From: a virus
Lineage: Duplodnaviria; Heunggongvirae; Uroviricota; Caudoviricetes
Direction: 5' to 3' (one strand)
Virus record (IMG/VR): IMGVR_UViG_3300031994_000001
Span: 1-55,798 of that record
DNA length: 55,798 nt
Part shown: in pieces, positions 14,979 through 17,599 of the stretch
How the letters are laid out: each line of letters begins with the position of its first letter
Numbering within the stretch: position 1 is the stretch's first letter
Position numbers and translations under genes: made by a program
Notes under the pieces: generated by a model
Database searches by the model: none
Seen by the model: only the letters and a program-made list of their open reading frames with translations
What the model was told of the DNA's origin: nothing

Positions 14979-15097
14979 TGGGAGATAGTGTAACGGAAGC
15001 ACACGTAATTTTTCGGTTCTTGTCAAAGAATTATGCAGCAAACAATAAAATTTGCTTTTGGGTAGCCGTGGTGTGGGTTCGATTCCCGCTCTCCCAA
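14979..15097 (+). tRNA. tRNA-Pro(TGG)-like with 48-nt insertion in the anticodon stem
   Basis: tgggaga/tctccca acceptor; cg[15006-15053]gct-ttTGGgt-agccg. Confidence 0.8.
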
Positions 15098-15103
15098 CAA
15101 AAC

Positions 15104-15175
15104 GGAGCATTAGGCTTAATGGTAAACTGACGGACTGTCTATCCGATGTTACGGGTTCGAATCCCGTATGTTCCG
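15104..15175 (+). tRNA. tRNA-Asp(GTC)
   Basis: cgga-ctGTCta-tccg. Confidence 0.85.
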
Positions 15176-15270
15176 CAAACGAAGTGACGTTTAATGCTGT
15201 ATAAGCGGAATTTTCCTGCGGCTCGAAAGTCGCGAATTTCGTGTCGCTGAAAGCAACCTATCCTTTGTCA

Positions 15271-15372
15271 GTATCTGTAGTGGCGAAGCATTGGTGAGAT
15301 TCCAATGTGGAGATGTCGGTCAGAACGTGAGGAAAAACCTCAAGGGCGCGGGTTCGACTCCTGCCAGATACG
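15271..15372 (+). ncRNA. tRNA-like RNA (acceptor + T arm, non-canonical core)
   Basis: gtatctg/cagatac, gcggg-ttcgact-cctgc; no recognisable anticodon arm. Confidence 0.65.
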
Positions 15373-15390
15373 CAATGTGAACTTATAGTG

Positions 15391-15812
15391 AAACATCTGT
15401 TGGAGGTAGGCTTGAGAGTAGCCATCCTTTAAAGAGTTGCGAGAGGTAGTAACTATATATGCGTGCGCAGCGTTGATTTAGGGTTACAAGAAACACCGTG
15501 GCAGGTAACTTGGTCGCTACGGGTCCCCTCACGGAGTCATAAGCACAAATGCCCGATGTCCAATTTTTAGTCTGAAATGGCGAAGTTTCCTTTGGGCGTG
15601 ACGGATTATTTAGGTGTCGGAGACAAGTATGACAGATAAGGTGCAACAGTACGGGAGGAGACTGCACTTAACATTTAACCATCGTGAATGGTATGGTGGA
15701 CGGGAAATGACGAAATTCCCGCACGCCGTGGGTGCATCAAGTTAAGCCCACGCTTGAATGTCTGTGGAACAGCCGTTGGAGCATTTGGTGTAAAAACACA
15801 CAACTGATGTTT
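15391..15812 (+). ncRNA. 23S rRNA factor-binding-centre mimic (split H43/H44 plus sarcin-ricin-like loop)
   Basis: GGAGGTAGGCTTGAGAGTAGCCATCCTTTAAAGAG ... GTGTAAAAACACAC closed by gttg/caac and aaacatc/gatgttt; internal gtgca-acAGTACGGGAGGAgac-tgcac. Confidence 0.75.
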
Positions 15813-15909
15813 TCTTTGACATAAGGGGTTTATAGATACCTACGGCAACCCATACAAAACTCAAACCGAAAAATTTGATTGACAATGTATCTTGTTACCC
15901 TTTTTTGAT

Positions 15910-15980
15910 AGGGATATGGTGTAACGGTAGCACAACAGATTTTGGTTCTGTTGGTCAAGGTTCGAATCCTTGTATCCCCG
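15910..15980 (+). tRNA. tRNA-Gln(TTG)
   Basis: acaga-ttTTGgt-tctgt. Confidence 0.9.
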
Positions 15981-16018
15981 CTAATGCACAACACATAACA
16001 CATTGCGCAACACAACAA

Positions 16019-17345: not shown

Positions 17346-17465
17346 GCGGACATAGTTTAATGGTAGAACGCGATAATCACAACGGTTCTTGACAAGAATT
17401 ATGCAGCAACTTTTTCGATTCGGTATTCCAAACCCGAAGTGCAGGTTCGAATCCTGCTGTCCGCT
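17346..17465 (+). tRNA. tRNA-Gly(TCC)-like with 49-nt insertion in the anticodon stem
   Basis: gcggaca/tgtccgc, U73; cg[17373-17421]ggt-atTCCaa-acccg. Confidence 0.78.
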
Positions 17466-17480: not shown

Positions 17481-17599
17481 GGGGGTGTAGTTCAATTGGT
17501 AGAATGCGTATTTAACGCACCTCGTAAGAGGTACACGCAGCAAACTTTTTCTATGGTCTGTCACACCCGTGGTTGTAGGTTCGAGTCCTGCCGCCCCCG
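17481..17599 (+). tRNA. tRNA-Asp(GTC)-like with 46-nt insertion in the anticodon stem
   Basis: gggggtg/cgccccc, G73; cg[17509-17554]ggt-ctGTCac-acccg. Confidence 0.8.

Follow-up and report, generated by a model that had tools for sequence, protein, structure and literature searches.

Why does a bacteriophage genome carry, within an array of tRNA genes, copies of two 23S rRNA elements that cooperate only in the ribosome? The question is raised by positions 15390–15813 (plus strand) of the stretch analyzed here, hereafter called the window, which has 55,798 nucleotides and represents the first 55.8 kb of the 413-kb IMG/VR phage record IMGVR_UViG_3300031994_000001. This interval specifies a self-closed RNA of roughly 420 nt that is present as a single copy in the 413-kb genome. 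Its two ends together reproduce the GTPase-associated center (GAC) of 23S rRNA, formed by the tip of helix 42 (H42), H43 and H44, and its interior displays a hairpin resembling the sarcin-ricin loop (SRL, H95). Comparison of homologues argues for a phage RNA family that keeps the tertiary fold of the GAC. A function as free decoy of the ribosomal factor-binding center is the favored reading, with a probability of about 0.45. In E. coli 23S numbering, which is used throughout, positions 15398–15437 correspond to 1051–1090 and positions 15788–15805 to 1091–1108 (the uL11/thiostrepton domain). The elements of the RNA are as follows:

15390–15402 (+), 5′ strand of the closing helix, consisting of the tip of H42 (rRNA 1051–1055) and eight more pairs; pairs with 15801–15813
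15403–15437 (+), GAC copy, 5′ half (G1056–U1090), comprising the H43 hairpin (15404–15428) and the junction UUUAAAGAGU
15438–15783 (+), insert of 346 nt branching from H44 between U1090 and G1091, with a basal helix formed by UGC (15438–15440) and GCA (15781–15783)
15531–15534 (+), ACGG, pairing with CCGU at 15773–15776 in a long-range insert helix (alignment columns 179–182 with 461–464)
15570–15581 (+), small insert hairpin with the loop UGAAAU
15641–15667 (+), SRL-like hairpin; AGUACGGGAGGA at 15648–15659 corresponds to rRNA 2654–2665, with G replacing A2660
15784–15787 (+), UUUG linker between the insert and G1091
15788–15800 (+), 3′ half of the GAC copy, with the H44 hairpin G1091–A1103 (GUGUAAAAACACA)
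15801–15813 (+), 3′ strand of the closing helix; pairs with 15390–15402

Covariation in the split GAC copy

As read in the window, the 5′ half of the GAC copy at 15399–15437 is GTTGGAGGTAGGCTTGAGAGTAGCCATCCTTTAAAGAGT and the 3′ half at 15788–15804 is GTGTAAAAACACACAAC. Both strings, as well as the hairpin at 15641–15667, stand exactly where the original prediction had placed them. The rRNA strings used for that prediction are confirmed by a 23S record of Salmonella, which reads GCCAGGATGTTGGCTTAGAAGCAGCCATCATTTAAAGAAAGCGTAATAGCTCACTGGT and CTCCTAGTACGAGAGGACCGGAG. Identity between window and Salmonella 23S is 27/39 in the 5′ half and 10/17 in the 3′ half. Thirteen of the 19 differences belong to sets of positions that covary in the family (1052/1107, 1053/1106, 1054/1105, 1058/1080, 1090/1101 and 1072+1092/1099), which bears out the proposed match in register with compensatory changes. 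The split lies between U1090 and G1091. The predicted spacing of about 350 nt between the halves holds as well, with the refinement that the insert proper has 346 nt and is followed by the UUUG linker.

The closing helix spans 13 positions (gttg/caac and aaacatc/gatgttt) with a single U·U mismatch. A degenerate H43 pattern has one match in the window versus none in 100 dinucleotide shuffles (mean 0.00), even with two mismatches allowed, and a chance origin of the H43-like match is excluded. The single-sequence fold of the RNA is no more stable than that of shuffled sequences (z = −1.2). Support for the structure therefore comes from covariation.

Members of the family were defined by a GAC 5′ half ending in AAAGAGU, followed by a variable insert, a UUUR linker (UUUG in the general layout), the motif GYGUAANARCACAC and the complement of the upstream stem, which provides a closing helix of their own; all of these features are present at 15390–15813. 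Core statistics are based on 81 distinct cores, in which parts of H43 and H44 were fixed by the search patterns, so that some of the invariance reflects ascertainment. The closing pairs 1051–1055/1104–1108, GUUG/CAAC in the window, occur in all four Watson-Crick types, and in a full-length alignment of 15 sequences both sides have changed in seven of eight pairs of the closing helix. In the homologue alignment, 98.3% of the cells of the H43 hairpin (1057–1081) are paired, and the pair 1058–1080 is found as UA (38), GC (25), AU (11) and CG (5) among the cores. The junction UUUAAAG (region U1082–G1087) is the same as in rRNA, being partly fixed by the search pattern. A1057, G1059 and U1060, which the search pattern did not cover, are invariant. 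The long-range pair of U1060 and A1088 is present as U and A in 81/81 cores. Position 1061 is occupied by A (38), U (20) or G (20); it also varies among real GACs (PMC6239185). The linker preceding G1091 is composed of U (78), U (79), U (77) and G (70) or A (10). Most members retain the H44 loop GUAA; a minority varies it, and variants such as GUAG, GUUG and GUGA are seen in members that fail the 3′ pattern.

Beyond the helices, covariation extends to a base triple. The pair 1092–1099, which on its own is CG (42), UA (27) or UG (12), tracks base 1072, giving the combinations C:CG (42), U:UA (24), U:UG (12) and C:UA (3) for 1072:(1092–1099). The rule is followed in 78/81 cores, and the window has U:U-A. 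In real rRNA, this triple reportedly covaries as C:C-G or U:U-A according to Conn, Gutell and Draper in 1998. Covariation of a tertiary triple points to selection on the three-dimensional fold and not on helices alone, and thus argues for a phage RNA that keeps the tertiary fold of the GAC.

Three features are specific to the family as compared with rRNA: A1101 in the U1090–A1101 pair, the UUUG linker, which neither real rRNA nor the unsplit member L106 possesses, and the 3-bp basal helix of the insert, which is paired in 100% of the cells and covaries across the family. Being shared and derived, these features argue for a single origin of the split-GAC RNAs and not for repeated capture of host rRNA.

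They also bear on the trivial explanation that the two halves are debris, a decayed scrap of a captured 23S rRNA gene or else exon stubs left by a mobile intron of rRNA. Such an origin would fit the split at a single rRNA position, with a 5′ stub ending in U and an insert ending in G as at group I splice sites, and phage records can contain real rRNA pieces. One case is the match in Paenibacillus phage Pd_22F (L156, MZ092003.1 near 83.4–84.0 kb), which is real 23S, continuous through H43–H44 and beyond, is not a member of the family, and represents either host contamination or a captured rRNA piece. However, an LSU (large subunit) rRNA gene is excluded in the 413-kb phage genome, which has no match to RF02541 at E values up to 10 (the control was positive in 13/14 genomes). 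The stubs are closed by a covarying helix of their own, and A1101, the linker and the basal helix are foreign to rRNA. A group I or group II intron is likewise rejected, as no intron or other such Rfam family is matched at E up to 10 in 15150–15950 and the insert varies from 0 to 364 nt across the family. Since the insert moreover has conserved covarying helices of its own, the splicing considered by the original prediction is not supported. The debris explanation is already contradicted and receives almost no weight. The earlier judgment that the halves reflect conserved structure instead of an rRNA scrap is upheld by the helices and the one rRNA base triple that covary across the family.

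The sarcin-ricin-like hairpin and the insert

The 27-nt hairpin at 15641–15667 reads gtgcaacAGTACGGGAGGAgactgcac. Its motif AGUACGGGAGGA agrees with the universal SRL 12-mer AGUACGAGAGGA in 11/12 positions, and its tetraloop GGGA, of the GNRA type, is placed on a C-G pair. The SRL pattern AGTACGNGAGGA has one match in the window compared with a mean of 0.03 in dinucleotide shuffles. The exact SRL string of the window has no match in IMG/VR, and a degenerate pattern was required to find relatives. A combined GAC and SRL pattern retrieved 13 IMG/VR and 29 metagenome loci, which form 15 SRL-bearing clusters at 90% identity. This subclass has a size of 390–440 nt, carries the hairpin at the same place in all 15 sequence clusters and displays a covarying stem, with the variants GUGCA/UGCAC, UUCCA/UGGAA, UUGCG/CGCAA and GUUCC/GGGAC and four pairs changed on both sides. 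Across 14 representatives there is no variation in GUACG-GAGGA, in the tetraloop-closing C-G pair or in the flanks UA-G and AA, the bases of the bulged-G motif (G2655/U2656/A2657 and G2664/A2665) included; position 2660 is A or G. The motif is complete (12/12) in about half of the subclass representatives, the remainder having G at 2660 or U at 2654.

When elements were fetched by the GAC 5′-half pattern alone, the motif AGUACGNGAGGA was found in 11 of 72 distinct complete elements (window included) at the same relative place, and L109 has the variant UGUACGAGAGGA. With a covariance model built from the hairpin, the window reaches 57.9 bits, and 18 loci belonging to other insert classes, some of them in cultured phages, gave no hairpin of this type. 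The prediction of an SRL-like hairpin in the insert is thus well founded, and its expected recurrence in homologues applies to the 390–440-nt subclass but not to most members of the family. When the hairpin model was run without filters on real 23S, it matched H95 best and in register, although weakly (12.5 bits, E 0.14). These comparisons confine the likeness to H95 to the 12-nt motif and the shape of a hairpin. When short words of 15 members were compared with real 23S, only the two GAC halves and the SRL proved recurrent; no further rRNA piece recurs in the insert, other short matches being due to lineage-specific chance.

The remainder of the insert is structured as well. In the full-length alignment of 15 sequences, 92.9% of the cells are paired, compared with 32–51% when the partners are slid, and 19 pairs have changed on both sides versus 5–9 in the slid controls; none of 500 shuffles reaches the observed values. 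RNAalifold, applied to the nine better-aligned sequences, yields 79 pairs, 39 of them with compensatory changes, and places in the insert a hairpin with the loop UAGCUA and a long helix presenting the SRL hairpin between UAAG and UUAA. Three of the four pairs in the long-range helix between 15531–15534 and 15773–15776 have changed on both sides. The small hairpin at 15570–15581 has a covarying stem and a loop, UGAAAU, that the subclass conserves; this loop may act as a T-loop-like contact point. With such conserved and covarying internal helices the insert constitutes an ornate domain and not a spacer. In two metagenome members, L137 and L129, a common 5′ part is combined with different 3′ parts, including the type of H44 (C-G versus U-A), which suggests recombination inside the RNA gene.

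SRL-subclass homologues are also found in the published genomes of Lak megaphages of Prevotella, with about 70–72% identity over 74–89% of the RNA. They are unannotated and located between tRNA-Arg and tRNA-Gly, at 372–812 in L278 (Lak-B3) and at 372–830 in L279 (Lak-A2) and L280 (Lak-A1). They retain the scaffold with changed H43 and H44 loops, and in their SRL position 2655 is U, so that the bulged G is lacking; Lak-A also has A at 2659.

These observations bear on a purely architectural use of the rRNA-like parts. The GAC fold could serve as a stable clamp and the SRL-type hairpin as a generic S-turn and GNRA module for RNA–RNA contacts, with the function left to the insert or to an assembly of higher order, as in ROOL and GOLLD, RNAs also borne by phages. 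Such a role would be in line with inserts of 0–364 nt that have conservation and structure of their own, with the drift of the rRNA-like loops on a maintained scaffold in Lak phages and with the phage tRNA-island niche common to ROOL and GOLLD (10.1101/2024.12.08.627333). The variability of positions 1067 and 2660, the drifted Lak variants and the lack of an SRL in most members keep an architectural role alive. However, with an insert of about 41 nt in L033 and none in L106 the core can stand alone, and GUAA is still the H44 loop of most members. In addition, the joint presence of exactly two elements of one functional site, with no other rRNA piece, would be an odd coincidence for a scaffold. 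Architectural reuse is accordingly regarded as distinctly unlikely.

Distribution, genomic context and biogenesis

The pattern GGCTTNNNAGNAGCCATCNTTTAAAGA is found in at least 119 IMG/VR contigs, almost none of which are rRNA. Unannotated members are present in the cultured phages GAP32 of Cronobacter, BF of Serratia, CBB of Pectobacterium, fHe-Yen9-04 of Yersinia, pEa_SNUABM_12 of Erwinia and its relatives, XacN1 of Xanthomonas, pf16 of Pseudomonas and 4_4572 of Aeromonas, a set that includes jumbo and T4-like phages. Among 120 matches of the 3′ motif in prokaryote genome contigs, six have the 5′ half too and are true members; the remaining ones are chance matches of a short pattern, for which several hundred are estimated in a collection as large as this one. 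The family is mainly phage-borne. A blastn search with the 726-nt region against 50,697 phage records gave no match at 1e-5, because the member in the window is divergent; short-core and L002-based queries did recover relatives among phage records. The member of phage XacN1 (L154, about 1500–1760) lies directly 3′ of a gene annotated as 2′-5′ RNA ligase, which hints at a link to RNA repair in some phages.

The family is not represented by a model in Rfam 15. Only tRNA and tmRNA fragments were matched, both at the gathering threshold across the entire window and with E values of up to 10 in 15150–15950, and ROOL, GOLLD and other Rfam 15 families are excluded by the lack of a covariance-model match. 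A protein-coding function is rejected as well, since 15 homologues do not agree on the strand, frame or length of their longest open frames. A literature search found no description of the family; most subscription journals were outside its coverage, so that a prior description is possible.

Within the phage genome, the RNA gene is part of an array of 36–38 tRNA genes on the same strand. Its neighborhood includes the following features:

15272–15372 (+), tRNA-like element whose end lies 18 nt 5′ of the RNA; it combines a 7-bp acceptor-type stem (GUAUCUG/CAGAUAC) with a T arm (GCGGG-UUCGACU-CCUGC) and long extra arms
15361–15389 (+), weak sigma-70-like promoter match with 9/12 consensus positions, a consensus match only
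15910–15981 (+), next tRNA gene of the array, Gln-UUG

In most of 15 loci examined and in pf16, a same-strand phage tRNA array likewise includes or adjoins the RNA; in pf16 the RNA is located between tRNA-Asn and tRNA-Pro. At seven loci (L002, L100, L134, L142, L035, L141 and L005), tRNA genes on the same strand lie only 4–7 nt from the ends of the RNA. From this abutting arrangement we infer that RNase P and the tRNA 3′-processing enzymes set the ends, and that the RNA is probably released by tRNA processing. The tRNA-like element at 15272–15372 is called by neither ARAGORN nor Rfam; by comparison with the loci in which tRNAs abut the RNA, it represents a possible candidate for a 5′-end processing signal. 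Three further tRNA matches of 119–120 nt in the window (14979–15097, 17346–17465 and 17481–17599, plus strand) have normal acceptor, D and T arms. They contain an insert of about 46 nt with the common motif GCAGCAA(A)C, and ARAGORN calls none of them.

Neither a uL11 domain nor an EF-Tu-type translational GTPase, a Ro/TROVE or an RtcB domain was detected in the phage genome, and any partner of the RNA would thus be host-derived. A role as autoregulatory leader of a ribosomal protein gene is excluded by the downstream tRNA-Gln gene and by the lack of a uL11 domain. A link to stop-codon recoding, prompted by the Lak homologues, was also rejected because the phage uses the standard code: stop-to-stop frames of at least 100 codons cover 94% of its genome and become barely longer with TAG as a sense codon.

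A possible decoy of the factor-binding center

Which function could select for such a molecule? In the favored reading, a stable noncoding RNA would be transcribed together with the phage tRNA array and released from the transcript by tRNA-processing enzymes. Its two ends would fold into the three-way junction of the GAC, the binding site of host uL11, and the 346-nt structured branch growing from H44 would display the SRL copy. Both rRNA elements that dock translational GTPases would thereby be presented off the ribosome, where the RNA could compete with ribosomes for a protein recognizing them. Host uL11 probably binds the RNA, which is presumably abundant. That the only recurring rRNA segments are two elements cooperating only in the ribosome supports a decoy of the factor site. 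The first-choice prey would be a toxin of the host or of a competitor that modifies or cuts these rRNA sites, making the RNA an anti-defense decoy beside spare tRNAs; a low-abundance translational GTPase or uL11 itself would be second choice. Phage tRNA arrays are thought to counter attacks on the translation apparatus. An anti-defense role is favored because suitable toxins exist: Tre23 ADP-ribosylates H44 at 1095–1098, and VapC toxins are named among the 23S rRNA cleavers (PMC8661411).

Not all of the partners suggested by the original prediction are compatible with the RNA. Toxins directed against the SRL stay among the candidates, but enzymes that need A2660 (ricin-type depurination) are excluded as a conserved target, as the window has G at this position. 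L10 (uL10) is a doubtful prey because the RNA includes only the tip of H42 and not the kink-turn region.

Several observations weigh against the decoy. Bases that contact the factors are not fixed: A2660 is replaced by G in the window and in several relatives, and position 1067 is A in 51, G in 29 and U in one of the 81 cores, with G in the window. The other loop-tip base for factor and thiostrepton contacts, A1095, is present in the window. Since most members of the family have no SRL, docking through this element cannot be a family-wide function, and the drift of the loops in Lak phages implies that exact mimicry is dispensable in at least one lineage. A decoy would have to compete with tens of thousands of ribosomes. 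Finally, the insert has strongly conserved motifs of its own, which the decoy model leaves unexplained.

The main rival, with which the same structural evidence could be reconciled, is a reprogramming of translation, in which the RNA sequesters free uL11 or a factor docking at the GAC and SRL (EF-G, IF2, RF3, BipA, LepA or HflX). Host ribosomes would then be altered late in infection, for example by a blunted stringent response or a shifted efficiency of termination. Ribosomes deprived of L11 fail to activate RelA and are poor at termination with RF1. A uL11 gene is missing from the phage. Moreover, an isolated 27-nt SRL oligonucleotide binds EF-G and IF2 in vitro (PMC3496166). However, EF-G and EF-Tu are too abundant to be titrated, uL11 bound to the ribosome is not quickly removed, and the standard code of the phage leaves a connection to stop-codon recoding unsupported. 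RelA-type sensors, also named in the original prediction, are a less likely prey, given that RelA depends mainly on the A-site finger and not on the SRL or the thiostrepton loop (PMC5829649), and the A-site finger is missing from the phage RNA. Sequestration with these consequences is considered rather unlikely.

A more elaborate version of the decoy, which is possible but on balance doubtful, would have the RNA form a small particle with host uL11. GAC and SRL, in a geometry set by the insert, would rebuild the docking surface for GTPases and capture a translational GTPase or an rRNA-directed immunity toxin. If true, such a viral 'mini-ribosome site' used as bait would be a new class of anti-defense or translation-control RNA.

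Comparison with known systems helps to define what is new. The phage RNA has the same helices and register as the GAC of rRNA (58-nt domain, 1051–1108), together with its junction UUUAAAG, the U1060/A1088 pair, the H44 loop GUAA and the covariation of 1058–1080 and of the base triple. In contrast to the rRNA domain, it stands alone in a tRNA array outside any rRNA gene, a helical branch and UUUG break H44 between 1090 and 1091, U1090–A1101 is swapped relative to the pair in E. coli, the window has G at 1067, and lower H42 and the kink-turn are lacking. With the SRL of rRNA (H95, E. coli 2653–2667) the hairpin shares the motif AGUACGNGAGGA, a GNRA loop closed by C-G, the bulged-G bases and a short stem, but the flanking non-canonical pairs differ and the phage hairpin emerges from a junction of several helices, between UAAG and UUAA. 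'Ribosome-in-pieces' oligonucleotides are isolated copies of the same two elements, with an SRL fragment that is 27 nt long like the phage hairpin. Those oligonucleotides, however, are laboratory constructs on separate molecules, whereas the phage RNA is natural, joins both elements and is conserved by selection.

Other RNAs are related by principle or by niche. Leaders of ribosomal protein mRNAs imitate the rRNA site of a ribosomal protein and act in cis upstream of ribosomal protein genes. OLE RNA has been proposed to sequester bS21 (RpsU) (10.1101/2024.12.08.627333). Both resemble the phage RNA in imitating, off the ribosome, the rRNA site of a ribosomal protein. Unlike a leader, however, the phage RNA is followed by tRNA genes in a phage without a uL11 gene, and it has no sequence relation to OLE (no Rfam match). 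ROOL and GOLLD also occupy phage tRNA islands (10.1101/2024.12.08.627333), are several hundred nucleotides long and ornate in structure, and have, like the present RNA, no known function. They form RNA-only cages that are not reported to copy rRNA sites, and the phage RNA does not match their models. Pseudo-ToxI of phage phiTE is a phage RNA that imitates the RNA partner of a host toxin and thereby neutralizes the toxin. It is the parallel for the decoy action proposed here, with the difference that pseudo-ToxI copies an antitoxin repeat and the present RNA copies ribosomal RNA. None of these closest systems is a natural trans-acting RNA joining two ribosomal functional elements.

If it is bound by uL11 and by proteins reading the GAC and SRL, the RNA would represent the first free-standing copy of a functional center of the ribosome to be found in nature. 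It would then give viruses a new route for interference with translation factors or for the disarming of rRNA-directed immunity, and would offer structural biology a minimal, evolution-tested model of the factor-binding site. The RNA could, moreover, point to host toxins that attack the GAC/SRL site. Large phages commonly carry members of the family, among them cultivable phages (GAP32, pf16 and XacN1) and Lak megaphages, so that these possibilities are open to experiment.

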